Assembly: GCF_964204865.1 (NCBI RefSeq)
Contig: NC_135251.1
Coordinates: 17,546,001-17,610,000, forward strand
DNA from: Styela clava
Taxonomy: Eukaryota
Direction: 5' to 3'
DNA length: 64,000 nucleotides
The stretch's first letter is position 1. Each line of letters begins with the position of its first letter. The notes under the pieces are model-generated. The model had not been told where the DNA came from. It did not search any database and saw only the letters and a list, made by a program, of their open reading frames with translations. A program made the translations under genes and the position numbers. Of the stretch, positions 23,887 through 62,892 are shown piece after piece.

Positions 23887-26477
23887 TTAGAACATGTCGT
23901 GACATTCGCCTCGAATTACTTCCATTCTCATGCATGGGTGATTATTCCATGATAATGGGTACAAACGAATAAGGCGACAAATCAGAGGTTTGGGAAACAT
24001 GTTAATCACTTTAGAATCCTCATCCGTGTTTCCTACAAAGACCTAAAGTAAAAAAACACATCATTTTGCAAAACACGACAAACGTTATTGTTATGATACC
24101 AATATCAAAAAGATTATAAGGGGAATAGAAATTGATAAATAGAAATGAATAATACAAATTTTGTTGTAATTTCCAGTTTCATCCTGCTTGTATACTTGGG
24201 AACCTGCGAATGAATTATTAGTATAGGATAGGATTTACATATTTATTTCTGGGGAGAGGAAAGCCGATACGGTGGCTTAATCATATGAAAAACCGCGGTC
24301 TCTCGTTCGGTTATCAGACCATGTCAGGTACGGGATTGTTAGCCAGTTATTCTTTTCAGATGCATGGAATTGATAGTGGTGAAAGCCGTAACCGACCAGG
24401 GGTTAAGTTAATCACTCTACGACAGAGAGGAGTCCCGCAATCATCTTACACATAGCTATTCTCGCATGGGATTCGAAACTGCGAACCCACGCAAGGTAAT
24501 CAGAGATGCGGTGGCGGGCGTATTTCTATATACCAATGTTTTTTGTTTAGTTGTTTAATTTCTATAGTGGGGTTACGGGCGATCACTGTAATAGCTTGTT
24601 ATACCGTAGTGATTGCGTGTAGCCAGATTGGTTTTTACCAAATAGAAGCAGCAGATTTTTTTGAATACAATAGCCCTTCATCGTATTATTTTGTTTTTCA
24701 TCCCTCGTGTACGATTATATAAAAGAAAATTGTGCGATACATACTTTGTCGACAGAATTATCCGTTATAGTTCTCAGAGTAGAAGTTGAATTCCCACACG
24801 CTACTTTGTATGTTTTTACCCACTGATTGTGATCCCATCCATATTTAATTGGGCGTCCCTGAGTTACTATTCCACCTATAAATCTCGGACGTTGAAAATC
24901 AACCTGAATCCACGGATGATTTGCTGAAAAATAATACTTTATAAATTTATTAGGATTTTTTTGAAAACTGTATACATGTTTTTACGTGTTTAACGCGAAT
25001 ATTTGCCACCGGATGTTGTTGGACTTGTCAAAATTATCGTTTATTTTTATTTATTTTTTTATTTACCTGATTCAGAGGTTATAATCAAAAAGAGATAGAG
25101 AACCGTTGATTGAGTATACAATTTTACATTCAAATAATGGGACATCGTACTCTTACTAATAATTTAAGTTAGAAAGGGCATGCAATGGTACTCATTTAAA
25201 AAACCTGGAGGGCCTAATTGGAAAGTAAAAAAACTGCAAAGATACAATGGATTATCAAGTGGAATTCAACACAGAAATACTTACTATCGTGTGTGGGGCA
25301 CCAAGCACCTATACTAAATCCAGTTGAAGCTGTATAGAAAACAGCATTTTCATCCATTCGTCCATGATGAGCGGCATGTCGGTAATCATAATCAGATGAT
25401 GCAGTAATCGCATGATCTGGAATATCCCTGTTCTTCATTCCCAATCCACAGTATGATACTGCAATGAATATGAAAGGATTTTCCATTTTATAAATAAGTA
25501 CTTCGATTATGTTCTACTGATCATCTGAGTATTTTCACGGAGTATTAGTTTCCATCGAATTGATCAATTGCAAACAACAATCGTCGCTTCGATCGAACTG
25601 TTGTATTCGATAACTGACTATAGTACTGCATATTTTGAAAATGGCGAATATGAAATATTATATATACGAATAATATAATTTATTTGCTTGACCCCTCTAC
25701 AAATAAGCTCACGACCGACTATGGCTTATATAGAATAGACCATAAGTCATTAACTATTTTCTCATTTCAGTTCCTTTCCTGGGTAAAATGAAATGTAAAA
25801 AATATATTGAATTGTAAATATCTTACGTTTTGGAATAATGTCAACGGTTTTCTTCATTTTTTCTAAAGTATAAATGCAAGAAGAAGAGCTCAATTATCTT
25901 TATTTTCCTATACGTATGTTGTATAATTAATGTTTTAATTTATTCAAATAAACTTCGTTGATAAACACTGTTTTATTATCTACTGGACCTGGTCTAGTAA
26001 AAATTCATTGCCAATTAAAAAACTCGTTCGTTTTTCCAAAATGGTATTTATTCTGTAAATATAAGTTCTGGACAAGTAATAAGCTTGGGTTTCACGCGAT
26101 TCCATAGCGAGCCGTCCGAAATAATCTAAAATGTGATTCATGACGTCAACGTGTCTCGTTTCCAGTTGGCTATATTTAGGACGTAGGAAATGAAATTTCT
26201 ATGCAAAAAATTTACCTTCTAACAATCTTATTTTATCTTCCAGGCTTTCCGTTGTCCCCTCTTGGCCTCTGTCACCTTTTACACCAGGCAGACCCCTCCT
26301 ACCCTCTGGCCCTCGCTTTCCAGGCCTTCCCTGGCACTGATCAGCACAGCTATGACTCGATGCAGTTTTGTCAGTCATTAGAGCAGAACAAAACTCGTAT
26401 ACGTTCGGTATGTCACCTAAAACTGCAGGTATGATCACGACACAGCACCATAATACGACAAAAGATTTATGCGGCAT
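23887..26477 (-). CDS. Secreted collagen-neck-discoidin (F5/8 type C) protein, copy A1, 268 aa
   Basis: Exons 26477-26216, 25862-25827, 25458-25285, 24923-24745, 24042-23887; all GT-AG, 807 nt. Signal peptide, (GXY)9, heptad neck, and discoidin motifs CGLGM..IPD..ITASS, AWC, WIQVDF..GIVTQG, QWVKTYKV, FVGNTD, RLYPLSW..CMRMEV..C. Confidence 0.92.
24223..24522 (-). mobile_element. tRNA-derived SINE in intron 4 of gene A (also in A2 and A3; partial in T, B and C copies)
   Basis: On the - strand there is a B-box-like TTCGAATCC and an (ATCCT)n tail. B-type introns keep the head, with A-box-like TGGCGCAACGTG and GGTACGAATCC (e.g. ~55920-56005). Confidence 0.65.
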
Positions 26478-26619
26478 ATCTATTTTATTTAATATTAACC
26501 GCAATAAAAAAAAGTATATTGTAGAAAATTTGGGCAAATATTTTCATCTTTGAAAAGCTTCCATATGTCCTGATAAATGTAATTTAAAATTGAAATGAAC
26601 ATATCGTTATACGGTTATA

Positions 26620-26980
26620 CCCTCTGTTCAATATGTCAAACATTGTAGTTAACGGCTTTGTTGTATCTTAACTTCCAAACTATTATTTTGCATCATTCCG
26701 AATTTACAAATACTACTCCATGACTAGATGCCGCTAATGTTTTTTTGACTTTGCCATCTTATATATATATATAAATATTAGGTCATCAGGGAAATAACGT
26801 TATATTTCACATTTTTTTCAAATTGAAATGACAATGGTTTTAATGTGTGAATTGAATGAGCTTCAGTATTTTCTCGTGGGAAACTTACATAGCGCTGATT
26901 TTCCTAACCACATCGTATGATTAGATATTATGTTAAAGGCATTTACCGAGCCACTAATAATCCAATAGGTTGGTGGTGAT
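26620..26980 (-). promoter_or_regulatory. Putative promoter and non-coding first exon of gene A1 (repeated upstream of every copy)
   Basis: (TA)n TATA-like box at ~26760-26774; CGTGGGAA at 26875-26882; AACCACA at 26906-26912; CCAAT at ~26962; candidate 5'-UTR donor GG|gtataa at 26620. Confidence 0.5.
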
Positions 26981-27499
26981 TGATTTGATATTTTAAATCA
27001 GTGCTTACGCTAATAAATGTAATTTGTTGAAATCCAAGTAAGACTGGTTACAAACACTCATTTAGTTCAATACCCAAGCACCGCTTATTTTGTGTTTCAG
27101 GGAGGCGAATACTGTGCGTGCGGGAAAGACGATATGTCTGGGCGCATGCTTGACCAAGCTTATTTTTACGAAAAAGTTCACAAGTTTCGTCGCTAATAAT
27201 TATAAGAAACAAACGGGCCGACACGGATGCCTTGACCAATGAACGATCCGTCAACGCAAACTACGATGAACCCGGCATAGGTGATTATATTCGCGGCACT
27301 CCCAGAGAATCGTAGTCTTCTCTCATTGGGCAGTGATAGACCTCCCTTGGGACACACAATAAGACAAAAGTGACCCAATGAGTGCGTTGACGCTTAAGTT
27401 GAGAAACATATAAAATTTTTGCAAATTCCAACTAAACGGTTAAGTACTTATAGGCCTTGAATCTAAAATTCAGTGTAAACTAAGTTCGGTTCAAAGTGG

Positions 27500-28669
27500 T
27501 AGGCCTATTGCAAGGATGGCATTCGATGGAGAAATTTCTAACAATCAGTCGATCGCAAGATATTAAGAAAATGTTAATCGATCTCGGCGATCCGCTGCGC
27601 ATATCCATATATTGTAAACTGTAGTAGTTTTTAGGATAAAAGCTTTGGAATCGTGTGGTAATTGTCACAGCTCAAAAAAGCAACAGAAAGTCATAGCTAT
27701 TTAAAGATGAGAATCACTCAAAAAAATTCAGAAACCCGAAAATCTGCATGCGTGCTTTTTCCGTTCGGCATTCTTTTTTTCGATAAATATTACTATCCAA
27801 ATAAAAGGTTATGAATATTTCTTTGTTTAAACCAGAAAACTGTAAAGAACAGTATAATATTCCTGAGTTCACCTTGACACCCATGAATTTGTTGCGACGC
27901 TGCAGGTGGCTACGAGACGCACAACAAAGTAGGGACCGCAGTGATCTTTACCGGGTGAGGCACAGCAGGATTTTGAGCCTGGTGCGAAGTTCGCAAGGAC
28001 ATTCTCATTGTAATATAAATTCATTTTTTTTGAAGCATTGATCAACTGCAGAGGCATTGATATAATGAACCCAATGAAAATTTTACTTTACAGTCCAGAT
28101 TTATAAAAGAATCATTGTCACAATTCATTCTTGGGCTCTCTTGATAACGTTTACCCATCGATAAGTATACGAGCATTTAAACTGTTGTCCGAATTTTCAA
28201 CCAGTTACTTCTAGCTTCAATTAAAACGAAACAAATAAATCGACTGTGAGCCGCTGCGGAGCTTTGTGTTGCAAAACCTTTTTTAGATGCCTCGTTTGCA
28301 GTCCTGTATTGAAAACGACACAGTAGCAAAATTCTCCCTGGAGTTATATGATTTGACATCTGCATGTTTTTATGTGAGATGTGTACCTTTTTTACGCATA
28401 ATGCGTGCCCAGCACTGCATCTTATTACGGAAATATAAGTTATTAATTTATATTCCACCCATTTCAATTTTTGTCGGCACATTATTTGATAGTTTTTCCT
28501 CATGCGAAATGTTTTTAGGGGGTGCCTTTTTTTTCTAAAGGCATAGTGATTGCTCGACATTACGCAAATATATGTTATTATTTTCTTTTCCACTAATTTC
28601 AGTTTTTGCCGGTCCGCAAAGACATTTTATTTTACCGGTCCGCCAGGGTAGAAAGGTTGGGAACCACTG
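27500..28669. mobile_element. Truncated hAT (Charlie-like) element, right end only; copies at +12,261, +24,522 and ~58.8-60.0 kb
   Basis: Terminus GGTTGGGAACCACTG followed by TTCTAGAG, a typical Charlie-type target; subterminal CCGGTCCGC repeats. No matching left TIR was found and the left boundary is approximate. Confidence 0.6.
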
Positions 28670-29162
28670 TTCTAGAGACATATCGGTGGATTGACCGCTC
28701 AACCAATCTCAATGTTGGAATCAGAAGTTATTATCAAAGATTATTATGCTTTTCATTTATTTTTTCCCTTTTATGTATTTTGTTGGCGGCTTTTTGATTA
28801 TCTCTACTTTGGATCTCTATCAATTTCATACACGATCTAACACAAGTTGAACGAGTTTTATTGAAAATCATTAATGCGTAATGCCTACTTATGAAATTTA
28901 TAAGTGTTATGAAGAACAACAACAAGAAGCAACATCTGAAGCAGTCTACAAAATTTGAAAACTTTGAAAAAAAGAAACAACATATTTTATGATTGCTGAT
29001 AAAACTGAAAATTTGAAACGCGGTTCAATAGTGAAAAGAAAAACAACTAGTCGATTTAGTGTTTGATAATGAGCCAAAAGTTAGCTCAATATTTCAGTAA
29101 AATTCTGAAAAGGCGTTCCTAGGTCGGTTGTAAGCCTATTCAAAGTCGAATAGCATGGATTC

Positions 29163-30051
29163 TTAGAACAAGTCGTGACATTCGCCTCGAATTACTTCCA
29201 TTCTCATGCATTGGTGATATTTCCATGATAATGGGTACAAACAAACAAAGCGACAAATCAGAGGTTTGGGAAACATGTTAATCACTTTAGAATTCTCATC
29301 CGTGTTTCCTGAAAAGACCTATAGTAAAACATAAATAAAAATATTATTTTACAAAATACGACAAACATTATTGTTATACTTTCGATATAAAAAAGCACAA
29401 AAGAAATAGATGAATAGGAAAATAACTGAAAAGTTTATTGTAATTTCCAGATTAATCTTGCTTATATACTTGGAACCTTACGAAGGAAATATTAAGATAG
29501 GATTTGCATATTTAACCCGGGGAGAGGTAAACTGATAAGACGGCTTAATCATATGTCGAACCCCGGCCTCGAGTACGGCTACCAGTCCGCGTCGGGAATG
29601 AAATTAGTTGGCCAGTTATTTGTTTCCGGTTTATAGACTTGTTAGTGGAGAAAGCCGTAACCGACCGGCGCTTACGTGAACCACCCTATACGGCAGCGAA
29701 AAGTTTAGCAATTTTCTCGCACATTTGATACGAATATGCGAACCCACGAATTAGTAACTAATATAGGTAATAATGAATAGCTAATATATTTATATATATA
29801 ATAGTTCTTCATCGTATTACTTTTTTTATCCCTAGTGTGCGTTTATATACAAGAATATTGTACGATACATACTTTGTCAATAGCATTATCCGTTATAGTT
29901 CTCAGAGTAGAAGTTGAATTCCCACACGCTATTTTGCATGTTTTTACCCACTGATTGAAGTCCCATACGTATTTAATTGGGCGTCCCTGTGTTACTATTC
30001 CACCTATAAATCTCGGGCGTTGAAAATCAACCTGAATCCACTGATCATTTG
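29163..30051 (-). pseudogene. Orphan discoidin exons 4-5 (cassette T1)
   Basis: Exons 30051-29873 and 29318-29163 have open frames and intact splice sites. Intron 3 jumps at ~30395 into intron-1 sequence and then into gene B's 3' flank; exons 1-3 are absent. Confidence 0.8.
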
Positions 30052-31167
30052 CTGATAAATATTAATTCGCAAATTCAGTATGATTTTCCTTTTTTTGAAA
30101 CTGTATCAAATTTTTACGTGTTTAACGCAAAATAGTTTCCTCCGGATATTATTGAAGTTGTTATAGTAATCGCTGGCTTTTATAAAATATTTACCTGATT
30201 TGATGGTTATACTCAGAAAAAGATAGATAATCTGTTGGTTCATTACAATTTTTACATGCAAATAATGATACGTCGTACTCCTATTAAAAAATATAGTGCA
30301 TGGAAGGGGCATGGCAAAGGTACTCGCTATATATATATGGAGGGCCTCGTTTAAAAAATAAAACAAAAATGTTGAGATACATCGATTGGAAGTGATCGTT
30401 TTGCAAATTGTTGGACTGAGAGTCATTACTTGAGGAATTATAGGGACCCCAGGAGGCATTTGTGTTAAAAATGGCTGCCCTGGAGTAATGACACAATTCT
30501 CTACATTGCAGCTTTCGTATTTTGCGCACTATCGTTGCATATTACCATTTTATTTAATTCCTAAACTGCCTGGGTGTTTTTGTCAAATTTGTGACACCGA
30601 AAAAACGAATAACATACACTGATATCTCTGGATTGACCGTTCGATCAACGTTGGAATCAGAATTTATTATCAAAGATATTTATGTTTTCAAATTTGTATC
30701 CTTGTTGGCGACTTTTTGACTATATCCACCGGGACCTCTACCAATTTTATACACGACCTAACACAAGTTAAACGAGTTTTATTAAAAAAACTAATGCGTT
30801 ACGCTTATATTTACGAAATTCAAGTTTTAACACATGATGAAAATAGTACAATACTTAAATGCTCATGCACACGAATACGGAAGTTAATTGGCACCATTTT
30901 TTTCGTACGTTAGCAACATCTGAAGCAGTCTACAAAATTTGAAAACTTATCAAAATAAACAACATATTTTATCTACTGTACTGATAACAATTGCTGCAAA
31001 ACTAAACATTTGAAACGCGATTCAGTAGTGAAAATGAGAAAACTAATCGATTTAGTGTTTGATATTGAGCCAAAAGTTGGCTTAATCTTTCAGTAAAATT
31101 GTGTAAATCCTGTGAAGGCTTTTCTAGATCGTCTGTAAGCCTATTCGAAGTCGAATAGCATAGATTC

Positions 31168-33331
31168 TTAGAACATGTCGTGACATTCGCCTCGAATTAC
31201 TTCCATTCTCATGCATATGCCAATATTCCAGGACATTGGATATAAACGAACAAAACGACAAGACAGAGGTTTGGGGAACATGTTAATCACTTTAGAATCC
31301 TCATCCGTGTTTCCTACAAAAACCTAAAGGAAAAACAACATCATTTTACAAAAGAGACGAGAAATTCAGTAATCCCCTCGCACATAATTATCTCACGTGG
31401 GATTCGTACCCACGCAGATAATCAGAGGTGCGGTGGCGAACGTACTCGTAAAGCATAGCACGTTGCGCCACAAATCTAAATCGTAAGAAAATTTCAAAAG
31501 CAACTAATTTCAATACGAATGTTTGCTGTTCAGTTATTTAATTTCCATAGCGGTGTTACGGGCACCATTGAAATGGCATGGTCTGTCGCTGTCAATGTGT
31601 GTAGCTAGATTGGTTTTTACCAGTGAAGTAGTATATTTATTCAAATATAATACCCCTTTTTCGTATTGCTGTTTGTTTTTCATCCTTTGTCTACAATCAT
31701 ATAAAAGAAAATTATACGATACATACTTTGTCGATCTCATTATCCGTTATAGTTCTCAGAGTAGAAGTTGAATTCCCACACGCTACTTTGTATGTTTTTA
31801 CCCGCTGATTGTAGTTCCATCTGTATTTAATTGGGCGGCCCTGAGTTACTATTCCACCTATAAATCTCGGACGTTGAAAATCAATCTGAATCCACTCACC
31901 ATTTGCTGATAAATATTAATTCGCAAATTTAGTATGAGTTTTATATTTTTTAGAAACTGTTAAAATATTTTTACGTTTAATCGTTTACTTTTCAAAATGT
32001 CTACCTGATTGGAAGATTAGAAAAAGGTGAAGAATCGACTGTTAATTCATTACAATTTTACATGGGAATAATAGTACATCGTGCTCCTTAGAAGTGGCAT
32101 GCTATGGGGCTCGTTTAAAAAATATAGAGGGCTTCGTTTGAAATATAAAACGAAATGTTAGGATCCACTTGATGTTAAGATATATCAAGTGAAAGTGAAC
32201 ACAAAAATACCTACTGTTTTGTCCGGAGCACCAGGCACCTACACTAAATCCAGATGAAGCTGTATGGAAAACAGCATTTTCATTCATTCGTCCATGATGA
32301 GCGGCATGTCGGTAATCAGAAACAGATGATGCAGTAATCACATGATCTGGAATATCCCTGCTCTTCATTCCCATTCCACAGTAGGATACTGCAATGGATA
32401 TAAAAGAAATTTTCTATTTATAAATAAGTGCTTCGATTATATTCTACTGATCATCTGATTATTTTTATGGTATGGATATAGAACAAATTTTATTTACCTG
32501 ATTATTTAATTTCGTAGGCCAATAGTCATTATTTTTCTATTTCAGTACCTATCCAGAGTAAAATGAAATGTAAAAAAATACATTGAATTTTAAATTACTT
32601 ACGTTTTGGAATAATGTCAACGGTTTTCTTCATTTTTTCTGAAGTAAAAATCAAGAAGATGCGCTCAGATTATCCTTAATTTCCTTTTTGTATTTTGTAG
32701 AATTAAACAGTTTTAATTTATTCAAATAAATTCTAATAAAATTCCTTGTGTCTCACTGTTTTATTATCCACTGGACACGGCCCAGAAAAAATTAATTGCC
32801 GTTTCAGGAACTTGTTTTACGAATTGTCGGACCGAAAGTCACTGCTCGATGAATTATATCAAAACAATTCATTTTTCATAAAATGTATTCATTCTGTGCA
32901 ATATAAGTTCTGAAAATGTAATATGCTTGGGTTTCACGCAATTCCATATCAAACCCGTCCAAAATAATTCAAAATGTAATGTCCAAAATGTAAATGTAAT
33001 GTCTCAGTTCCAGTTGGCTATATTTAGGGCGTAAAAAATGAATGTTAAATGCATAACAAAAAAGCTTACCTTCTAACAATCTTATTTTCTCCTCCAAGCG
33101 TTCCGTTGTCCCCTCTTCGCCTCTGTCACCTTTTACACCAGGCAGACCCCTCCTACCCTCTGGCCCCCGCTTTCCGGGCCTTCCCTGGCACTGAGCAGCA
33201 CAGTTATGACTCGATGCAGTTTTGTCAGTCATTAGAGCAGAACAAAACTCGTATACGTTCGGTATGTCACTTAAAACTGCAGGTATGATTACGACACAGC
33301 ACCATAATACGACGAAAGATTTATGCGGCAT
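31168..33331 (-). CDS. Secreted collagen-neck-discoidin protein, copy B1, 268 aa
   Basis: Exons 33331-33070, 32638-32603, 32388-32215, 31905-31727, 31323-31168; open frame. Carries a W>R change in the QWV motif. Confidence 0.88.
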
Positions 33332-34031
33332 ATCTATTTTATTCAATATTAATTGCAATTAAAAAAAGTATATTGTAGAAAATTTGGGCAAATATTTTCA
33401 TCTTTGAAAGGCTTCCATATGTCCTGATAAATGTAATTTAAAATTGAAATGAACATATCGTTATACCCTCTGTTTAATATCAAACATTGTAGTTAACGGC
33501 TTTGTTGTATCTTAACTTCCAAACTATTGTTTAGCATCATCCCGAATTTACAAATACCACTCCATGACTAGACGCCGCTAATGTTGTTTTGACCTTGCCA
33601 TCTTATATATATAGAGAGAGAGAGAAATATTAGGTCATCAGGGTACTAACGTTATATTTCACATTTTAGTTTTTCGAAACTGAAATGGAAGTTCAAAAAA
33701 TGCCGAGACAATGGTTTTAATGTGTAAATTGAACGAGCTTCAGTATTTTCTCGTGGGAAACTTACATTGCGCTGTTTTTCCCAACCACATCGCCTGATCG
33801 TAAAGAGATTATATTTTGAAAACATTTACCAAACCACTAAGCCAATAAAGCTTGGTGGTGACTAATTGATATTTTAAATCAGTGCTAACGCTAATAAATG
33901 TAATTTGTTGAGATCCAAGTGAGACTGGTTACAAATACTCATTTATTTCAGTATCCAAGCACCGCTTATTTTGAGTCCCTATGCTTACTCTAATCTGGAA
34001 AGAAGTATTCATCAATATCACCTATATGTAT

Positions 34032-34838
34032 CAGAGTTGGATCAATTGTAATTTGTAATTGTAATTGATGTAATTAATTACAGTTTTTCATGTAATTGTA
34101 ATGTAATCGAGGCATTTTCATTCTGTGTAATTGTAAATGTAATTGTAATTTGCTAAAATTTCGGCTCAATTACACTTTCAAGTACACCAGGGGTCACCAA
34201 ACTAGGGCGTCCTTTCATCTGGCAAATAACACGAAAAAGGGCGAAATATTTTTCCAAGGGGCGTTTCCGAGAATCGCCTTCCTTTTTTTTATTTCGTAAC
34301 ATTAGCCAATCAGCAAGATGCGAAAAAGAGACGTAACAATATGCCTTTTCGCATCCGTTAAGACACTCGGACAGATTTTCAGTCGTGGTTGTAAACATTA
34401 CCTCATTTTGCGATTTCGAATGCTATTCGTTAGATTTTAGTTGTGTTTCGGAAATTTAAGTTTGAATCAAATAAGTGAATCCTCATATTGCCTTCTTAGG
34501 AGTTATAGTTTAATTATAAGTAGTTATCAAAATTAGTCTAGAAATAGCTGTGATAAAATAGGCTAAATCCATGGGAACACTGGCTGTCTGGTTTGATTCT
34601 GTAAATTCTTGCTACGCGAAACTCGGAAATTTTTTGAGGGTAGCGGTAGCATCAAGGGTAAACTGCTTCGCTCTGTGTAACGTGTCCATATATTTGAGCA
34701 TTGCTCTGTTGTAATTGTAAATGTAATGTAATTGTATTTTGATACTTTTTGCACGGAGTAATTGTAATGTAATTGAAATATTTAAGGAAGTAATTGCAAT
34801 TGTAATTGAACTGAATTAATGTAATTGATCCAACTCTG
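34032..34838. mobile_element. hAT-type MITE (807 bp) with TGTAAT subterminal arrays
   Basis: Perfect 16-bp TIR CAGAGTTGGATCAATT; perfect 8-bp TSD ATATGTAT; a second, internal hAT-like end CAGGGGTCACCAAACT at 34188. Confidence 0.9.
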
Positions 34839-34932
34839 ATATGTATCATTTTTTCTTTTGCCTGGAAGGTTTGATAGTTAGACAGTTTGAATGCAAATTA
34901 TATTCAAATTTGTCATTTTTTAAAGAATAAAT

Positions 34933-35815
34933 AATTTAGAATTAAAATGAACATATCGGTATACCCACTGTTCAATGTGTCAAACATTGAAGTTAACGAC
35001 TTTGTTCGTCTGTATCTTAATTTCCCAACTAACATTTTGCATCATCCCGATTTTACAAATACTACTCCTATAACTAGACGCCGCTAATGTTTTTTTGACT
35101 TTGCCATCTTATATGTATATATATAAATATTCGGTCATCAGGGAACTAACGTTATATTTCACATTTTTTTTTAAATTGAAATGGAAGTTCAAAAAATGCC
35201 GAGACAATGGTTTTAATGTGTGAATTGAACGAGCTTCAGTATTTTCTCGTGGGAAACTTACATTGCGCTGATTTTCCTAACCACATCGTACGATTAGATA
35301 ATATGTTAAAGGCCATTACCGAGCCACTAATAATCCAATAGGTTGGTGGTGATTGATTTGATATTTTAAATCAGTGCTAACGCTAATAAATGTAATTTGT
35401 TGAGATTCAAGTGAGCCTGGTTACAAATACTCATTTAGTTAAATATCCAAGAAGCTCTTATTTTGTGCTCCAAGGAGGCGAATACTATGCGTGCGGGAAA
35501 GACGATATGTCTGGGCGCATGCTTGACCAAGCTTATTTTTACATAACAGTTTACAAGTTCCGTCACTAATAATTATAATAAACATGTAACTACGATGAAA
35601 CCCATAGGTAATTATATTCACGGCACTCCTAGAGAATCGTAGTCCACTTCATTGGAAAGATAGCCTTCCTTTGGCTATGTCACAATAAGACAAACGTAAC
35701 CCAATGAGTGACGTCTAAAGTTGAGAAGCATATAAAACTTTTCAAATTCCAAATAAACGGTGTAGTTAGTGAAGTTATCAAGGTTAGTGTAGTAAACTAA
35801 GTTCGAGTCAAAGTG
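34933..35815 (-). promoter_or_regulatory. Orphan duplicate of the cluster promoter and 5'-UTR exon (also ~47194-48076)
   Basis: Colinear with 26590-27500 and most similar to the copy-C promoter (~63010-63175). No coding exon 1 follows it directly. Confidence 0.7.
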
Positions 35816-36146
35816 GGAAAGACAGAAATGCTCATGCACACGAATACGAAAGTCAATTGTCACCATTTTCCTCGTACTTTTAGCAACATCTGAAGTAGTA
35901 TAATTATACAGATTGAAAAAATTTACAAAATTAAACATTATATTCTATCTACTGTAATGATTCTGATTGCTGCTGAAACTGAAAATTTAAAACGCGGATC
36001 AACAGTGAAAAAGAGAAGCAACTGGTCGATTTAATGTTTGATAATGAGTCAAAAGTTGGCTTTATCTTTCAGTAAAATTTTGTAAATCCTGTAAAGGCTT
36101 TTCTCGGTCGTTTGTAAGCCTATTCAATGTCGAATAGCATGGATTC

Positions 36147-50999: not shown

Positions 51000-53684
51000 A
51001 TCTATTTTATTTAATATTAACCGCAATAAAAAAAAGTATATTGTAGAAAATTTGGGCAAATATTTTCATCTTTGAAAAGCTTCCATATGTCCTGATAAAT
51101 GTAATTTAAAATTGAAATGAACATATCGTTATACGGTTATACCCTCTGTTCAATATGTCAAACATTGTAGTTAACGGCTTTGTTGTATCTTAACTTCCAA
51201 ACTATTATTTTGCATCATTCCGAATTTACAAATACTACTCCATGACTAGATGCCGCTAATGTTTTTTTGACTTTGCCATCTTATATATATATATAAATAT
51301 TAGGTCATCAGGGAAATAACGTTATATTTCACATTTTTTTCAAATTGAAATGACAATGGTTTTAATGTGTGAATTGAATGAGCTTCAGTATTTTCTCGTG
51401 GGAAACTTACATAGCGCTGATTTTCCTAACCACATCGTATGATTAGATATTATGTTAAAGGCATTTACCGAGCCACTAATAATCCAATAGGTTGGTGGTG
51501 ATTGATTTGATATTTTAAATCAGTGCTTACGCTAATAAATGTAATTTGTTGAAATCCAAGTAAGACTGGTTACAAACACTCATTTAGTTCAATACCCAAG
51601 CACCGCTTATTTTGTGTTTCAGGGAGGCGAATACTGTGCGTGCGGGAAAGACGATATGTCTGGGCGCATGCTTGACCAAGCTTATTTTTACGAAAAAGTT
51701 CACAAGTTTCGTCGCTAATAATTATAAGAAACAAACGGGCCGACACGGATGCCTTGACCAATGAACGATCCGTCAACGCAAACTACGATGAACCCGGCAT
51801 AGGTGATTATATTCGCGGCACTCCCAGAGAATCGTAGTCTTCTCTCATTGGGCAGTGATAGACCTCCCTTGGGACACACAATAAGACAAAAGTGACCCAA
51901 TGAGTGCGTTGACGCTTAAGTTGAGAAACATATAAAATTTTTGCAAATTCCAACTAAACGGTTAAGTACTTATAGGCCTTGAATCTAAAATTCAGTGTAA
52001 ACTAAGTTCGGTTCAAAGTGGTAGGCCTATTGCAAGGATGGCATTCGATGGAGAAATTTCTAACAATCAGTCGATCGCAAGATATTAAGAAAATGTTAAT
52101 CGATCTCGGCGATCCGCTGCGCATATCCATATATTGTAAACTGTAGTAGTTTTTAGGATAAAAGCTTTGGAATCGTGTGGTAATTGTCACAGCTCAAAAA
52201 AGCAACAGAAAGTCATAGCTATTTAAAGATGAGAATCACTCAAAAAAATTCAGAAACCCGAAAATCTGCATGCGTGCTTTTTCCGTTCGGCATTCTTTTT
52301 TTCGATAAATATTACTATCCAAATAAAAGGTTATGAATATTTCTTTGTTTAAACCAGAAAACTGTAAAGAACAGTATAATATTCCTGAGTTCACCTTGAC
52401 ACCCATGAATTTGTTGCGACGCTGCAGGTGGCTACGAGACGCACAACAAAGTAGGGACCGCAGTGATCTTTACCGGGTGAGGCACAGCAGGATTTTGAGC
52501 CTGGTGCGAAGTTCGCAAGGACATTCTCATTGTAATATAAATTCATTTTTTTTGAAGCATTGATCAACTGCAGAGGCATTGATATAATGAACCCAATGAA
52601 AATTTTACTTTACAGTCCAGATTTATAAAAGAATCATTGTCACAATTCATTCTTGGGCTCTCTTGATAACGTTTACCCATCGATAAGTATACGAGCATTT
52701 AAACTGTTGTCCGAATTTTCAACCAGTTACTTCTAGCTTCAATTAAAACGAAACAAATAAATCGACTGTGAGCCGCTGCGGAGCTTTGTGTTGCAAAACC
52801 TTTTTTAGATGCCTCGTTTGCAGTCCTGTATTGAAAACGACACAGTAGCAAAATTCTCCCTGGAGTTATATGATTTGACATCTGCATGTTTTTATGTGAG
52901 ATGTGTACCTTTTTTACGCATAATGCGTGCCCAGCACTGCATCTTATTACGGAAATATAAGTTATTAATTTATATTCCACCCATTTCAATTTTTGTCGGC
53001 ACATTATTTGATAGTTTTTCCTCATGCGAAATGTTTTTAGGGGGTGCCTTTTTTTTCTAAAGGCATAGTGATTGCTCGACATTACGCAAATATATGTTAT
53101 TATTTTCTTTTCCACTAATTTCAGTTTTTGCCGGTCCGCAAAGACATTTTATTTTACCGGTCCGCCAGGGTAGAAAGGTTGGGAACCACTGTTCTAGAGA
53201 CATATCGGTGGATTGACCGCTCAACCAATCTCAATGTTGGAATCAGAAGTTATTATCAAAGATTATTATGCTTTTCATTTATTTTTTCCCTTTTATGTAT
53301 TTTGTTGGCGGCTTTTTGATTATCTCTACTTTGGATCTCTATCAATTTCATACACGATCTAACACAAGTTGAACGAGTTTTATTGAAAATCATTAATGCG
53401 TAATGCCTACTTATGAAATTTATAAGTGTTATGAAGAACAACAACAAGAAGCAACATCTGAAGCAGTCTACAAAATTTGAAAACTTTGAAAAAAAGAAAC
53501 AACATATTTTATGATTGCTGATAAAACTGAAAATTTGAAACGCGGTTCAATAGTGAAAAGAAAAACAACTAGTCGATTTAGTGTTTGATAATGAGCCAAA
53601 AGTTAGCTCAATATTTCAGTAAAATTCTGAAAAGGCGTTCCTAGGTCGGTTGTAAGCCTATTCAAAGTCGAATAGCATGGATTC

Positions 53685-54574
53685 TTAGAACAAGTCGTGA
53701 CATTCGCCTCGAATTACTTCCATTCTCATGCATTGGTGATATTTCCATGATAATGGGTACAAACAAACAAAGCGACAAATCAGAGGTTTGGGAAACATGT
53801 TAATCACTTTAGAATTCTCATCCGTGTTTCCTGAAAAGACCTATAGTAAAACATAAATAAAAATATTATTTTACAAAATACGACAAACATTATTGTTATA
53901 CTTTCGATATAAAAAAGCACAAAAGAAATAGATGAATAGGAAAATAACTGAAAAGTTTATTGTAATTTCCAGATTCATCTTGCTTATATACTTGGAACCT
54001 TACGAAGGAAATATTAAGATAGGATTTGCATATTTAACCCGGGGAGAGGTAAACTGATAAGACGGCTTAATCATATGTCGAACCCCGGCCTCGAGTACGG
54101 CTACCAGTCCGCGTCGGGAATGAAATTAGTTGGCCAGTTATTTGTTTCCGGTTTATAGACTTGTTAGTGGAGAAAGCCGTAACCGACCGGCGCTTACGTG
54201 AACCACCCTATACGGCAGCGAAAAGTTTAGCAATTTTCTCGCACATTTGATACGAATATGCGAACCCACGAATTAGTAACTAATATAGGTAATAATGAAT
54301 AGCTAATATATTTATATATATAATAGTTCTTCATCGTATTACTTTTTTTATCCCTAGTGTGCGTTTATATACAAGAATATTGTACGATACATACTTTGTC
54401 AATAGCATTATCCGGTTATAGTTCTCAGAGTAGAAGTTGAATTCCCACACGCTATTTTGCATGTTTTTACCCACTGATTGAAGTCCCATACGTATTTAAT
54501 TGGGCGTCCCTGTGTTACTATTCCACCTATAAATCTCGGGCGTTGAAAATCAACCTGAATCCACTGATCATTTG
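53685..54574 (-). pseudogene. Orphan discoidin exons 4-5 (cassette T3), frameshifted
   Basis: As T1, but with a 1-bp insertion in exon 4 (tccggttata at 54411-54420 versus tccgttata). Confidence 0.8.
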
Positions 54575-55692
54575 CTGATAAATATTAATTCGCAAATTCA
54601 GTATGATTTTCCTTTTTTTGAAACTGTATCAAATTTTTACGTGTTTAACGCAAAATAGTTTCCTCCGGATATTATTGAAGTTGTTATAGTAATCGCTGGC
54701 TTTTATAAAATATTTACCTGATTTGATGGTTATACTCAGAAAAAGATAGATAATCTGTTGGTTCATTACAATTTTTACATGCAAATAATGATACGTCGTA
54801 CTCCTATTAAAAAATATAGTGCATGGAAGGGGCATGGCAAAGGTACTCGCTATATATATATGGAGGGCCTCGTTTAAAAAATAAAACAAAAATGTTGAGA
54901 TACATCGATTGGAAGTGATCGTTTTGCAAATTGTTGGACTGAGAGTCATTACTTGAGGAATTATAGGGACCCCAGGAGGCATTTGTGTTAAAAATGGCTG
55001 CCCTGGAGTAATGACACAATTCTCTACATTGCAGCTTTCGTATTTTGCGCACTATCGTTGCATATTACCATTTTATTTAATTCCTAAACTGCCTGGGTGT
55101 TTTTGTCAAATTTGTGACACCGAAAAAACGAATAACATACACTGATATCTCTGGATTGACCGTTCGATCAACGTTGGAATCAGAATTTATTATCAAAGAT
55201 ATTTATGTTTTCAAATTTGTATCCTTGTTGGCGACTTTTTGACTATATCCACCGGGACCTCTACCAATTTTATACACGACCTAACACAAGTTAAACGAGT
55301 TTTATTAAAAAAACTAATGCGTTACGCTTATATTTACGAAATTCAAGTTTTAACACATGATGAAAATAGTACAATACTTAAATGCTCATGCACACGAATA
55401 CGGAAGTTAATTGGCACCATTTTTTTCGTACGTTAGCAACATCTGATGCAGTCTACAAAATTTGAAAACTCATCAAAAATAAACAACATATTTTATCTAC
55501 TGTACTGATAACAATTGCTGCTAAAACTAAACATTTGAAACGCGGTTCAGTAGTGAAAATGAGAAAACTAATCGATTTAGTGTTTGATATTGAGCCAAAA
55601 GTTGGCTTAATCTTTCAGTAAAATTGTGTAAATCCTGTGAATGCTTTTCTAGATCGTCTGTAAGCCTATTTGAAGTCGAATAGCATAAATTC

Positions 55693-57866
55693 TTAGAACA
55701 TGTCGTGACATTCGCCTCGAATTACTTCCATTCTCATGCATATGCCAATATTCCAGGACATTGGATATAAACGAACAAAACGACAAGACAGAGGTTTGGG
55801 GAACATGGTAATCACTTTAGAATCCTCATCCGTGTTTCCTACAAAAACCTGAAGTAAAAAAAACATCATTTTACAAAAGAGACGAGAAATTCAGTAATCC
55901 CCTCGCACATAATTATCTCACGTGGGATTCGTACCCACGCAGATAATCAGAGGTGCGGTGGCGAACGTACTCGTAAAGCTTAGCACGTTGCGCCACAACG
56001 CCGAGAACAAATCTAAATCCTAAGAAAATTTCAAAAGCAACTAATTTCAATACGAATGTTTTCTGTTCAGTTATTTAATTTCCATAATGGTGTTACGGGC
56101 ACCATTGAAATGGCATGGTCTGTCGCTGTCAATGTGTGTAGCTAGATTGGTTTTTACCAGTGAAGTAGAAAATTTATTCAAATATAATACCCCTTTTTCG
56201 TATTGCCGTTTGTTTTTCATCTTTTGTCTACAATCATATAAAAGAAAATTATACGATACATACTTTGTCGATCTCATTATCCGTTATAGTTCTCAGAGTA
56301 GAAGTTGAATTCCCACACGCTACTTTGTATGTTTTTACCCACTGATTGAAGTCCCATCCGTATTTAATTGGGCGTCCCTGAGTTACTATTCCACCTATAA
56401 ATCTCGGACGTTGAAAATCAATCTGAATCCACTCACCATTTTCTGATAAATATTAATTCGCAAATTTAGTATGAGTTTTCTATTTTTTAGAAACTGTTAA
56501 AATATTTTTACGTTTAATCGTTTACTTTTCAAAATGTCTACCTGATTGGAAGGTTAGAAAAAGGTGAAGAATCGGCTGTTAATTCATTACAATTTTACAT
56601 GGAAATAATAGTACATCGTGCTCCTTAGAAGTGGCATGCTATGGGGCTCGCTTAAAAACTATGGAGGGCTTCGTTTGAAATATAAAACAAAATGTTAGGA
56701 TCCACTTGATGTTAAGATATATCAAGTGGAAGTGAACACAAAAATACCTACTGTTTTGTCCGGAGCACCAGGCACCTACACTAAATCCATTTGAAGCTGT
56801 ATGGAAAACAGCATTTTCATCCATTCGTCCATGATGAGCGGCATGTTGGTAATTAAAATCAGATGATGCAGTAATCACATGATCTGGAATATCCCTGCTC
56901 TTCATTCCCATTCCACAGTAGGATACTGCAATGGATAAAAAAGAAATTTTCTATTTATAAATAAGTGCTTCGATTATATTCTACTGATCATCTGATTATT
57001 TTTATGGTATGGATATAGAACAAATTTTATTTACCTGATTATTTAATTTTGTAGTCCAATAGTCATTATTTTTCTATTTCAGTACCTATCCAGAGTAAAA
57101 TGAAATGTAAAAAAATACATTGAATTTTAAATTACTTACGTTTTGGAATAATGTCAACGGTTTTCTTCATTTTTTCTGAGGTAAAAATGCAAGAAGATGC
57201 GCTCAGATTATCCTTAATTTCCTTTTCGTATTTTGTAGAATTAAACAGTTTTAATTTATTCAAATAAATTCTAATAAAATTCTTTGTGTCTCACTGTTTT
57301 ATTATCCACTGGACACGGCCCAGAAAAAATTAATTGCCGTTTCAGGGACTTGTTTTGCGAATTGTCGGACCTAAAGTCACTGCTCGATGAATTATATCAA
57401 AACAATTCATTTTTCATAAAATGTATTTATTCTGTGCAATATAAGTTCTGAAAAAGTGATATGCCTGGGTTTCACGCAATTCCATACCAAACCCGTCCAA
57501 AATAATTCAAAATGTAATGTCCAAAATGTAAATGTAATGTCTCAGTTCCAGTTGGCTATATTTAGGGCGTAAAAAATGAATGTTAAATGCATAACAAAAA
57601 AGCTTACCTTCTAACAATCTTATTTTCTCCTCCAAGCGTTCCGTTGTCCCCTCTTCGCCTCTGTCACCTTTTACACCAAGCAGACCCCTCCTACCCTCTG
57701 GCCCCCGCTTTCCGGGCCTTCCCTGGCACTGAGCAGGACAGTTATGACTCGATGCAGTTTTGTCAGTAATTAGAGCAGAACAAAACTCGTATACGTTCGG
57801 TATGTCACCTAAAACTGCAGGTATGATCACGACACACCATAATACGACAAAAGATTTATGCGGCAT
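55693..57866 (-). CDS. Collagen-neck-discoidin protein, diverged copy B3, 267 aa
   Basis: Exons 57866-57608, 57175-57140, 56925-56752, 56442-56264, 55848-55693; open frame. One Cys codon is deleted from the signal peptide and the QWV Trp is retained. Confidence 0.9.
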
Positions 57867-60557
57867 ATCTATTTTATTTAATATTAACTGCAATAAAAAA
57901 AGTATATTGTAGAAAATTTGGGCAAATATTTTCATCTTTGAAAGGCTTCCATATGTCAAACATTGTAGTTAACGGCTTTGTTGTATCTTAACTTCCAAAC
58001 TATTATTTTGCATCATTCCGAATTTACAAATACTACTCCATGACTAGATGCCGCTAATGTTTTTTTGACTTTGCCATCTTATATATATATATAAATATTG
58101 GGTCATCAAGAAACTAACGTTACATTTCACTTTTGTTTTTTAAATTGAAATGACAATGGTTTTAATGTGTGAATTGAACGAGCTTCAGTATTTTCTCGTG
58201 GGAAACTTACATTGCGCTGATTTTCCTAACCACATCGTACGATTAGATAATATGTTAAAGGCCATTACCGAGCCACTAATAATCCAATAGGTTGGTGGTG
58301 ATTGATTTAATATTTTAAATCAGTGCTAACGCTAATAAATGTAATTTGTTGAGATCCAAGTAAGACTGGTTACAAATACTCATTTAGTTCAATATCCAAG
58401 CACAGCTTATTTTATGTTTCAAGGAGGCGAATACTGTGCGTGCGGGAAAGACAATATGTCTGGGCGCATGCTTGACCAAGCTTATTGTTACGAAAAAGTT
58501 CACAAGTTTCGTCACTAATAATTATAAGAAACAAACGGGCCGACACGGATGCCCTGACCAATGAACGATCCGTCAACGCAAACTACGATGAACTCCATAG
58601 GTGAATATATTCGCGGCACTCCTATAGAATCGGTAGTCTTCTTTCATTGGGCAGTGATAGACCTCCCTTGGGACACACAATAAGACAAAAGTAACCCAAT
58701 GAGTGCGTTGACGCTTAAGTTGAGAAACATAAAACTTTTGCAAATTCCAACTAAACGGTTAAATACTTATAGGCCTTGAATCTAAAATTCAGTGTAAACT
58801 AAGTTCGGTTCAAAGTGGGAGGATTATTGGAAGGATGGCATTCGATGGAGAAATTTCTAACAATCAGTCGATCGCAAGATATTAAGAAAATGTTAGTCGA
58901 TCTCGGCGATCCGCTGCGCATATTCATATATTGTAAACTGTAGTAGTTTTTAGGATAAAAGCTTTGGAATCGTGTGGTAATTGTCACAGCTCAAAAAAGC
59001 AACAGAAAGTCATAGCTATTTAAAGATGAGAATCACTCAAAAAAATTCAGAAACCCGAAAATCTGCATGCGTGCTTTTTCCGTTCGGCATTCTTTTTTTT
59101 CGATAAATATTACTATCCAAATAAAAGGTTATGAATATTTCTTTGTTTAAACCAGAAAACTGTCAAGAACAGTATAATATTCCTGAGTTCACCTTGACAC
59201 CCATGAATTTGTTGCGACGCTGCAGGTGGCTACGAGACGCACAACAAAGCATGGACCGCAGAGATCTTTACCGGGTGAGGCACAGCAGGATTTTGAGCCT
59301 GGTGCGAAGTTCGCAAGGACATTCTCATTGTAATATAAATTCTTTTTTTTTTTGAAGCATTGATCAACTGCAGAGGCATTGATATAATGAACCCAATGAA
59401 ACTTTTACTTTACAGTCCAGATTTATAAAAGAATCATTGTCACAATTCATTCTTGAGCTCTCTTGATAACGTTCACCCATCGATAAGTATACGAGCATTC
59501 AAACTGTTTTCCGAATTTTCAACCAGTTACTTCTAGCTTCAATTAAAACGAAATAAATAAATCGACTGTGAGCCGCTGCAGAGCTTTGTGTTGCAAAACC
59601 TTTTTTAGATGCCTCGTTTGAAATCCTGTATTGAAAACGACACAGTAGCAAAATTCTCCCTGGAAGGTATTTGTGTTTGTACATGATTTGACATCTATAT
59701 ACATATATTTATGTGAGATGTGTGCCTTTTTACACATAATCCGTGCCCAGCACTGCATTTTATTACGCAAATATAAGTTATTAATTTATATTCCACCCAT
59801 TCAAATATTTGTCGGCACATTAGTCGATAGTTTTTCCTCATGCGAAATGTTTTTAGGGAGTGCCTTTTTTTTCTAAAGGCATAGTGATTGCTCGACATTA
59901 CGCAAATATATGTTATTATTTTCTTTTCCACTAATTTCAGATTTTGCCGGTCCGCAAGTACATTTTATTTTACCGGTCCTCCAGGGTAGAAAGGTTGGGA
60001 ACCACTGTTCTAGAGACATATCGGTGGATTGACCGTTCAACCAATCTCAATGTTGGAATCAGAAGTTATTATCAAAGATTATTATGCTTTTCATTTATTT
60101 TTTCCCTTTTATGTATTTTGTTGGCGGCTTTTTGATTATCTCTACTTGGACCTCTATCAATTTCATACACGATCTAACACAAGTTGAACGAGTTTTATTG
60201 AAAATCATTAATGCGTTATGCCTACTTATGAAATTTATAAGTGTTATGAAGAAAAAATACAATACTTAGATGCTCATGCACATGGATACGAAAAGTAATT
60301 GTCATCATTTTTCTCGTAAGTTGGCAACATCTGAAGCAGTCTACAAAATTTGAAAACTTTGAAAAAAAGAAACAACATATTTTATGATTGCTGATAAAAC
60401 TGAAAATTTGAAACGCGGTTCAATAGTGAAAAGAAAAACAACTAGTCGATTTAGTGTTTGATAATGAGCCAAAAGTTAGCTTAATATTTCAGTAAAATCC
60501 TGTAAAGGCTTTTCTAGGTCGTTTGTAAGCCTATTCAATGTCGAATAGCATGGATTC

Positions 60558-62892
60558 TTAGAACATGTCGTGACATTCGCCTCGAATTACTTCCATTCTC
60601 ATGCATGAGTGATTATTCCATGATAATGGGTACAAACAAACAAAGCGACAAATCAGAGGTTTGGGAAACATGTTAATCACTTTAGAATTCTCATCCGTGT
60701 TTCCTAAAAAGACCTATAGTAAAAAATAAAAAAAATATCATTTTACAAAATACGACAAACATTATTGTTATAATTTCGATATAAAAAAAGCACAAAAGAA
60801 ATAGATGAATAGGAAAATAACTGCAAATTTTATTGTAATTTCCAGATTCATCTTGCTTATATACTTGGAACCTTACGAAGGAAATATTAAGATAGGATTT
60901 GCATATTTAACCCGGGGAGAGGTAAACTGATAAGACGGCTTAATCATATGTCGAACCCCGGCCTCGAGTACGGCTACCAGTCCGCGCCGGGAATGAAATT
61001 AGTTGGCCAGTTATTTGTTTCCGGTTTATAGACTTGTTAGTGGAGAAAGCCGTAACCGACCGGCGCTTACGTGAACCACCCTATACGGCAGCGAAAAGTT
61101 TAGCAATTTTCTCGCACATTTGATACGAATATGCGAACCCACGAATTAGTAACTAATATAGGTAATAATGAATAGCTAATATATTTATATATATAATAGT
61201 TCTTCATCGTATTACTTTTTTTATCCCTAGTGTGCGTTTATATACAAGAATATTGTACGATACATACTTTGTCAATAGCATTATCCGTTATAGTTCTCAG
61301 AGTAGAAGTTGAATTCCCACACGCTACTTTGTATGTTTTTACCCACTGATTGAAGTCCCATCCGTATTTAATTGGGCGTCCCTGTGTTACTATTCCACCT
61401 ATAAATCTCGGACGTTGAAAATCAACCTGAATCCACTCACGATTTGCTGATAAATAACAATTCGCAAATTTAGTATAAGTTTTTTATTTTTTTATGAAAC
61501 TGTATAATATTTTTACGTGTTTAATGCAAAATAGTTTCCTCTGGATATTAGTGAAGTTGTTATAGTAATCGTTTACTTTTATAACATATTTACCAGATTT
61601 GATGGTTATACTCAGAAAACGGTAAGTATTCTGTTGGTTCATTACATGTTTAAATGCAAATAATGATACGTCGTACTCCTATTAAAATTAAAGTGTATGG
61701 AAGAGCCATGGCAATGGTACTCGTTATAAAATATGATGGGCCTCGTTTGAAAAATAAAACGAAATGTTGAGATCCAATTGATGTTAAGATACATCGAGTG
61801 GATTTGAACACAAAAATACCTACTGTTTTCTCCGGAGCACCAGGCACCTACACTAAATCCATTTGAAGCTGTATGGAAAACAGCATTTTCATCCATTCGT
61901 CCAGGATGAGCGGCATGTTGGTAATTAGAATAAGATGATGCAGTAATCGCATGATCTGGAATATCCCTGCTCTTCATTCCCATTTCACAGTAGGCTATAC
62001 TGCAATGGATATGAAACAAATTTTAATTTTATATAAATAAGTACTTCGATTTAATTTAACGGATAATCCAACTTATTTTTTTTTTTTGAAAAATTAATTT
62101 CAGTGAAACTAGTCAACTGGCCAAACAACAATCGCCGATTCAGTCGAACAGTTATATTCGATATCAGAAACGTGTGACTAGTAGCCTATATAGCATATTT
62201 TGTTGAAAATAGCGAATGTGAAAAGATTTATTATTAAAAAGGTTCTTGACCCCTTTCGAAAACGCTCATGACCGACTGTGGCGTATAGAGACCATAGGTA
62301 AATAATTTTTCCATTTCAGTTCCTATTCTGGGTAATATGAAATCTAAAAAATATACTGAATTGTGAATATCTTACGTTTAGGAATAATGTCAACGGTTTT
62401 CTTCATTTTTTCTAAAGTAAAAATGCAATAAAAAGTGGTAAGATTATCTTCATTTTCCTATATATACGTATTTTGTATAATTAAACAGTTTTAAGTTTAT
62501 TCAAATAACTTCAAAACAGTAAAATTAATTGTGTCTCACTGTTTTATTATCCACTGGACCTGAGCTAGTAAAAAATCATTGTCGTAAAGGACTCGTTTTG
62601 CAAATTGTTGGACTGAAATTCACTACTTGAGGAATTATAGCGAACAATTCATTTTTCATAAATGATATTTATTCTGTGCAATATAAGTTCTGAACAAGTA
62701 ATATGCCTGGGTTTCATGCGATTCCATAGCGAGCCCGTCCAAAGTAATCTAGAATATAATTCATGGCGTCAACGTGTCTCGGTTTCAGTTGGATAAAGCA
62801 GAACAAAACTCGTATACGTTCGGTATGTTACTTAAAACTGCAGGTATGATCACGACACAGCACCATAATATAACAAAAGTTTTATGCGACAT
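60558..62892 (-). pseudogene. Disrupted collagen-discoidin copy C
   Basis: Exons 5 (60713-60558), 4 (61446-61268), 3 (~61999-61824) and 2 (62411-62376) are present. Exon 1 has lost ~210 bp (collagen, neck and donor), giving ..FCSALSN*. There is a 2-bp insertion at the exon-3 acceptor and two transposons in the TATA repeat. Confidence 0.85.

Follow-up and report, generated by a model that had tools for sequence, protein, structure and literature searches.

Collagen-stalked discoidin genes in a tandem array of Styela clava and the concentrated variation in the top loops of their predicted recognition head

Introduction

Collectins and ficolins such as MBL, SP-A and the ascidian members consist of a signal peptide, an N-terminal cysteine segment, a short collagen region with Gly-Lys-x-Gly-Pro, a helical neck and one C-terminal recognition domain. 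Here we analyzed a stretch of 64,000 nucleotides from the ascidian Styela clava (contig NC_135251.1, positions 17,546,001 to 17,610,000, referred to as the window), which contains, on its minus strand, a tandem array of a single five-exon gene type. The genome is AT-rich and 377 Mb in size. The predicted proteins share this order of parts, with a neck that is predicted to be helical, but the head is an FA58C/discoidin domain and not a C-type lectin, fibrinogen or C1q domain, an arginine follows the lysine of the collagen motif, and there are only eight to nine triplets. Membership of the collectins was rejected because no C-type lectin head was found (only FA58C and collagen matched), and membership of the ficolins because there is no fibrinogen-like head; by layout the predicted proteins are collectin/ficolin-like and belong to neither family. 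On balance we lean slightly towards the reading that the array codes for collagen-stalked discoidin proteins, predicted to be secreted as collectin-like trimers, and that selection likely diversifies the top loops of their heads and thereby broadens the recognition of foreign surfaces.

The discoidin fold and its loop-based binding are textbook knowledge. Lactadherin/MFG-E8 is defined by EGF repeat(s) and two C domains, and the Atlas rows are consistent with this definition. The array proteins have the discoidin fold in common with it and with the C domains of factor V/VIII, but they carry only one C domain, lack EGF repeats and have a collagen stalk. The discoidin domains of DDR1/2 and CPXM/AEBP1 share with the array a cysteine after the Ala-Trp motif and a cysteine before the last strand (the equivalents of DDR2 Cys73-Cys177, the first of which is aligned), whereas their kinase, transmembrane or M14 peptidase domains have no counterpart here. 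An agglutinating glycoprotein of S. clava, Sc-lactadherin, is reportedly the subject of a 2019 paper by Guo, Dou and Dong, to judge from its title. A literature search retrieved nothing on the collagen-neck-discoidin architecture or its expansion, subscription papers, including the one on S. clava lactadherin, being outside its coverage. FREPs, VCBPs and MHC micro-conversion are examples of tandem copies with selected binding loops, conversion between copies and gene content that differs between haplotypes. They differ from the discoidin family in their fold, and the function of the latter is predicted.

Results

Three intact gene types in a tandem array

Self-alignment of the window revealed that a unit of 12,261 bp is repeated about 2.8 times in tandem, the units being 98.5-99.4% identical as assembled. 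Each unit has the order B-T-A, and copy C is an extra copy ahead of the units in the direction of the genes. The copies are arranged as follows (window coordinates).

23576..57957, no strand: tandem units, about 2.8 x 12,261 bp, from self-alignment
23887..26477, minus strand: A1, intact, 268 amino acids (aa), identical to NCBI protein P0003; exons 26477-26216, 25862-25827, 25458-25285, 24923-24745 and 24042-23887
29163..30051, minus strand: T1, exons 4-5 only, descended from a C-like gene; 1.3% difference to C in intron 4
31168..33331, minus strand: B1, intact, 268 aa, identical to P0005
36147..38738, minus strand: A2, intact, with G132E, identical to P0001
41424..42312, minus strand: T2, exons 4-5 only
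43429..45592, minus strand: B2, intact, with P182R, identical to P0013
48408..50999, minus strand: A3, intact, identical to P0004; contigs of probable RNA runs show splicing of the A-type introns 2, 3 and 4
53685..54574, minus strand: T3, exons 4-5 only, with exon 4 frameshifted by 1 bp
55693..57866, minus strand: B3, intact, 267 aa, identical to P0002; introns of the B type, letters of the C type at codons 124, 126, 145 and 189
60558..62892, minus strand: C, broken; exon 1 truncated by a deletion from about codon 33 onwards, exon 3 with 2 bp inserted at its start

The ten copies collapse to three intact types, A, B and B3. The triplication accounts for A1-3, B1-2 and T1-3, which are nearly identical within each set; owing to this identity the ten copies were rejected as independent data points. 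Six copies (A1-3, B1-2 and B3) encode, with GT-AG boundaries, intact proteins of 267-268 aa, which by inspection equal NCBI entries of Styela clava named "inactive carboxypeptidase-like protein X2". The initial annotation had treated A, B, B3, C and T as five paralogs. The number of working paralogs is lower than this implied: C and T were rejected as functional paralogs because C lacks the collagen region and stops early, and T lacks exons 1-3, with an additional frameshift in T3.

The deletion in exon 1 of copy C removes both the collagen region and the splice donor, so that a stop follows after 35 codons; it is bridged by a contig of run X10. The 2-bp insertion in exon 3 is absent from both X10 contigs that span the site and may be private or an error. 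Two C-like database proteins are 164-aa models, both of which start at Met105. A C-specific joint from the signal peptide of C to exon 2 by a cryptic donor was not found in the crossing contigs, whose letters were of other types. Probable RNA runs of three studies yielded contigs in which A-type introns 2-4 are spliced out, for intron 2 in a single run; B-type introns 2 and 3 are spliced out in one such run, X9. The RNA status of the runs is a guess backed by the spliced joints, and no run is recorded as RNA. Intron 4 of the copies (48744-49036, 54055-54150 and 60886-61083) contains a high-copy interspersed repeat with very deep contig cover.

Architecture of the predicted proteins

Each intact gene encodes a hydrophobic leader, which we interpret as a signal peptide, a cysteine segment, 8-9 Gly-X-Y triplets, a predicted helical neck and one FA58C/discoidin domain. 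This corresponds to the layout of a defense collagen with an N-terminal cysteine segment, a Gly-X-Y stalk and a C-terminal globular head. In A1 the stalk comprises the following features.

26250..26330, minus strand: collagen stalk, Gly50 to residue 76, nine glycine-led triplets
26307..26324, minus strand: Pro52-Gly-Lys-Arg-Gly-Pro57, MASP-type motif with Arg at a usually aliphatic position

Among 24 family proteins Cys30, Cys44 and Cys48 are kept in 22, 22 and 23, respectively. The neck helix is predicted at residues 76-103 with a predicted local distance difference test score (pLDDT) of 52-59; Leu86 is invariant, and a heptad L79-I83-L86-M90 was assigned by eye. The head scored 87.5 bits with FA58C/discoidin (PF00754), compared with a gathering cut-off of 28.2. 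Its model is confident (pLDDT mostly at least 90, and 63-75 in L2 and L4), and Foldseek matched it to FVIII C2 (E 6e-15, about 30% identity) and NRP1 b1 with target template modeling scores of 0.8-0.88. A Pfam scan of the protein found FA58C and collagen families only, and no peptidase, EGF or second C domain. The database names thus reflect the domain match only, which in our interpretation also applies to the NCBI name "lactadherin-like". Assignment to lactadherin/MFG-E8 was rejected on the domain scan, and assignment to CPXM2/AEBP1, the NCBI label, because the 268-aa protein has no M14 carboxypeptidase match. In the database protein P0139, which belongs to the family, the discoidin domain is followed by an additional C-terminal ILEI domain.

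Variation in the top loops of the head

In the discoidin barrel L1-L3, L4 and L6 are on top and L5 is at the side, according to Carafoli et al. (PMC2807035), and the ligand site of NRP1 b1 is likewise described as lying on six loops atop the domain (PMC5947257). The variable codons of the array, given here for A1, were assigned to these loops.

25379..25393, minus strand: L1, codons 122-126
24913..25297, minus strand: L3, codons 154-161, interrupted by intron 3 (25297-25285 and 24923-24913)
24820..24843, minus strand: L4, codons 185-192
23935..23946, minus strand: L6, codons 250-253

All loop strings that had been listed across A, B, B3, C and T are present in the sequence: DYDYR, VSDYR, DFNYQ and YSNYQ in L1, PTHDTNHP, SGQNTNGE, SGQNKNGE, SGENTNRE and -NDQ in L3, YGWDH, YRWNY, YGWDF, YGWDF and YVWDF in L4, and WNNHP, WNIGI, WNIGI, WNNHS and WKYHQ in L6. 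Exon 2 and the three core motifs named as nearly invariant show no amino-acid change among the five types, except that the frameshift of T3 lies inside the second motif. The proposed equivalence of the variable segments with the discoidin spike loops was borne out by HMMER, which aligned them to L1, L3, L4 and L6 of DDR2, NRP1-b1 and FVIII C2, including the FVIII segment W2313-H2315 for L6; the mapping rests on this alignment to solved structures.

In a set of 14 database proteins from two clusters, the top loops L1-L4 and L6 hold 11 of the 13 domain positions with at least three residues, the exceptions being 214 and 238. This corresponds to 11 of 54 top-loop positions versus 1 of 44 other non-strand positions (Fisher p=0.011). 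The top loops contain 37 extra residue states, a number reached by 1 of 165 circular shifts (mean 20.4). The concentration thus exceeds chance, but it is incomplete: outside the loops, positions 214-215 vary as well, with S/E/A/F at 214, and so does a tract of the B type at 233-248. Codons 214-215 (24751-24756 in A1) also have a high selection posterior.

These loops bear on a very unlikely alternative, in which the proteins are matrix or membrane adaptors that bind collagen like DDR/CPX or phosphatidylserine like lactadherin. Exon 3 alone matched DDR2 and DDR1 best (four of four PDB hits); Cys153 aligns with DDR2 Cys73, and all five family proteins with Cys153 also have Cys254, as in the Cys73-Cys177 bridge. 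Tyr185 and Trp187 in L4 are invariant, and the alignment of L6 with W2313-H2315 points in the same direction. However, of the residues Trp52, Thr56, Asp69, Arg105 and Glu113 that characterize the DDR collagen site, the first three align with Y/S/F123, His127 and I/V149, and because of these replacements a DDR-type collagen-binding discoidin domain was rejected, the conserved Cys73 notwithstanding. The domain scan with its lack of EGF, second C and peptidase domains also argues against an adaptor, and a fixed self ligand would not be expected to favor diversification of the loops.

Tests for selection on the loops

All codon models were fitted with our own GY94 codon likelihood code using one tree per exon, and the selection tests were repeated without C and T. 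For the loop tests whole loops were set by structural anchors (35 codons), with L2 omitted as in the initial annotation. Since a baseline of synonymous sites only overstates selection, introns were used as a second baseline.

Counting minimal changes in the intact copies, we found 24 nonsynonymous changes on 54 sites (22 loop codons) and 21 on 339 sites in the rest of the domain. The likelihood ratio test (LRT) of M2a versus M1a gave 19.5 with C and T included, and sites 160, 161, 189, 214 and 253 had a posterior above 0.9. M8 versus M8a on intact copies only gave an LRT of 10.9 for the whole gene and 15.5 for the domain. Omega of the loops was 4.0-4.7 compared with about 0.5 elsewhere (p=0.019 with the loops' own synonymous rate), and a null with site-rate variation gave p=0.030 for the intact and 0.0025 for all copies. 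The private domain changes of B1/B2 comprise seven nonsynonymous ones (codons 122, 135, 145, 186, 188, 189 and 192) and no shared private synonymous one, although the introns of B1 and B3 differ by 2.6%. Two other, unlinked clusters of the family were analyzed. In the C16 cluster (seven genes) the LRT of M2a versus M1a was 29.3, and 10 of 11 sites with a posterior above 0.9 were located in L1, L3, L4 or L6. In the C13 cluster (five genes) this applied to 10 of 10 sites; two of the seven genes fetched there (L040 and L041) were dropped for lack of an intact model. Six further fetched loci (L038, L039 and L047-L050) did not enter the tests.

Several results weigh against the reading of a diversifying defense collagen. 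The strict test covers three intact types only, and two of the five types, C and T, are broken. Counted in the loops alone, nonsynonymous to synonymous changes of 24:3 versus an expected 54:12 are not significant (p=0.26), and the use of all six loops (62 codons) in the intact copies gave p values of only 0.036-0.049. Under a mosaic-tract null without positive selection, the nominal cut-off was passed in 16 of 60 runs and the observed 15.5 was reached in one of 60. Between A and B, introns differ by alignment at 19-25% of the aligned sites and nonsynonymous loop sites at 36%, which is about 1.8 times the intron rate after correction (p=0.03) and a low margin. In the C13 cluster M2a versus M1a was not significant (LRT 4.3, p=0.12), nor was the test of whole loops with a synonymous rate of their own in either cluster (p=0.25 and 0.32). 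The high omega outside the loops, together with five private changes of B3 outside them (four substitutions and one codon loss), hints at relaxed constraint. As to the stalk, the collagen Pfam match scores below the gathering cut-off, the arginine occupies a position that is usually aliphatic in MBL and ficolins, and Pro-Gly-Lys is not rare in collagens.

Many of these observations would be explained if the loops tolerate changes and drift at nearly the intron rate, conversion evens out the remainder of each exon, broken copies add noise and no repertoire is selected. In favor of this explanation, surface loops are also the most variable part family-wide (entropy 1.91 versus 1.1-1.2), and mosaic nulls inflate the site test. 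We nevertheless regard it as unlikely. The fitted synonymous rate of the loops is not raised (multiplier 0.84, and 0.62 with C and T), omega is still above 1, and other non-strand positions vary far less. Conversion that homogenizes the flanks should overwrite loops of 12-24 bp unless selection opposes it. The loops of B1 and B3 differ at 8 of 54 sites and their introns at 35 of 1345, and those of C and T at 8 of 31 compared with 7 of 533, an excess that may in part have been imported by conversion. In addition, selection at the level of sites was replicated in the C16 cluster. Positive selection on some sites of the top loops is therefore probable. Since the mosaic simulations passed the nominal cut-off so often, the support for it is only moderate, and the original proposal of diversifying selection is sustained by omega and by one of two clusters, but not by counting.

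Probable gene conversion and variants within the species

Between A and B, 18 of 174 synonymous sites differ but 217 of 961 intron sites (p=1.5e-4). Of 21 pairs from other clusters, most had about equal values for both kinds of sites; hence the exons of the array look homogenized. B1 and B3 are sisters according to their introns, which differ by 2.6%, whereas B3 groups with C and B1 with A at codons 124, 126, 145 and 189, so that four informative sites contradict the intron relationship. Conversion thus appears to shuffle loop variants and to homogenize the frame of the exons. Between two genes of the C16 cluster (L031 and L034, G000:C16) intron 3 differs at only 2.3% and synonymous sites at 14%. 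This is opposite to the situation in the window and suggests that conversion occurs in C16 as well.

Seven database proteins match no copy of the window and carry new loop combinations, with no B type among them; they are taken to originate from another individual. L6 occurs in seven variants among the 14 database proteins. By decoding contigs by hand we found the variants V122 and TTNS in the probable RNA runs X1 and X2, and an otherwise unseen Thr189 in X2. From these combinations and variants it follows that loop variants segregate and recombine within the species. Such segregation would also be expected if the selected diversity served self/non-self or gamete recognition or host-cell targets and not the recognition of microbes. 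Genes of S. clava labeled "Mfgm" mark thyroid-like, epithelial and vascular endothelial clusters in a published study (PMC10980280); their identifiers cannot be mapped to the copies. We consider this alternative quite unlikely, as a soluble layout of the ficolin/collectin type and a family of about 50 loci spread over 11 contigs are more in keeping with pattern recognition than with a single locus for allorecognition.

The family in the genome and its first exon

Genome searches with exon 4 gave 70 hits and with exon 1 85 hits. For 51 of the 70 FA58C exon hits, distributed over 11 contigs, one of the 58 best exon-1 hits is found on the same strand at most 5.2 kb upstream; the 51 loci are a lower bound and include broken ones. 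Database relatives with 42-49% identity have the same architecture. The Atlas contains a 59-member chordate "lactadherin-like" cluster near one family member. In a search of representatives, which was dominated by multi-repeat proteins, the eight new hits across stalk and head whose source was looked up all came from S. clava, which is no proof of absence elsewhere, and one unnamed Logan protein (P0031, 33% identity) combines collagen and discoidin parts. Eight loci at G000:C4 1.67-3.23 Mb have nearly identical scores and apparently represent a recent segmental expansion.

Five weaker exon-1 loci were fetched: three have fibrinogen-domain exons, one has a C-type lectin exon, and L055 has a ficolin-like first exon. 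The first coding exon of the four scanned ficolin (L051, L052 and L056) and collectin (L054) genes of S. clava has the same order of parts as that of the discoidin family and ends in a candidate phase-1 donor. The alignment of these exons with exon 1 of A shows no variation in G53-K54-x-G56-P57. Of 26 family proteins, among them alleles or isoforms of one gene, 23 contain Pro-Gly-Lys-x-Gly, and x is arginine in 21 of these. The MASP site is given as Hyp-Gly-Lys-Xaa(aliphatic)-Gly-Pro with the lysine as essential residue (PMC2856262); with arginine as Xaa the match is only partial.

The ficolin-like genes at G000:C19 ~5.0-6.9 Mb (L051, L052 and L055), with collagen and fibrinogen domain, form a large tandem array with 24 exon-1 hits, several of them about 95-100 kb apart, and further tandem ficolin-like genes lie at G000:C10:11173875 (L056). 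The collectin at G000:C1:4593129 (L054) consists of collagen, neck and C-type lectin parts.

Neighboring genes

The window contains one further fragment of the gene type.

209..444, minus strand: orphan, interrupted exon 1 fragment

Two paralogous multi-exon genes on the plus strand (about 1600-3424 and 9400-20016) combine LDL-receptor class A-like exons with a rhodopsin-type seven-transmembrane end according to weak Pfam hits; they likely encode LDLa-G protein-coupled receptors. A remnant of a reverse transcriptase of the long interspersed nuclear element type (L057) lies just ahead of the window start, and the OST48 gene (L058, G000:C2:17610001-17620000) follows on the plus strand just past its end.

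Discussion

The best reading of the predicted proteins is a defense collagen family with a discoidin head and a diversifying recognition surface. According to this model the signal peptide would export the chain, the neck helix (residues 76-103) and the 8-9 Gly-X-Y triplets would assemble a trimer, and the conserved Cys30, Cys44 and Cys48 would link the chains. Three heads would then present the variable top surface, so that several heads could engage a patterned surface with avidity. Selection would favor point mutations in L1, L3, L4 and L6, short conversion tracts would recombine them between copies and alleles and keep the rest of the exons alike, and unequal crossing-over would gain and lose copies. 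Most speculatively, Lys54 of Pro-Gly-Lys-Arg-Gly-Pro might recruit a MASP-type protease and link binding to C3. Ascidian MASPs exist. Expression of C3 in blood cells of S. clava is reported in the above-mentioned study (PMC10980280).

In its widest form the proposal is doubtful, though possible: S. clava would have a further class of complement-linked pattern-recognition collagens, discoidin-headed and with more than 50 genes, whose loops are positively selected and whose micro-conversion between copies and alleles results in germline recognition repertoires that differ between individuals. If this is true, a close relative of vertebrates combines the collagen-stalk design of the lectin pathway with a fourth head fold, and a large, fast-evolving repertoire is hidden under the database labels lactadherin-like or CPXM2-like. 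Most differences between A, B and B3 lie in four loops of a well-known scaffold, which makes the three types a natural panel for the loop specificity of discoidin domains. The family would also provide a direct test for germline immune diversity at the level of individuals in an invasive ascidian.

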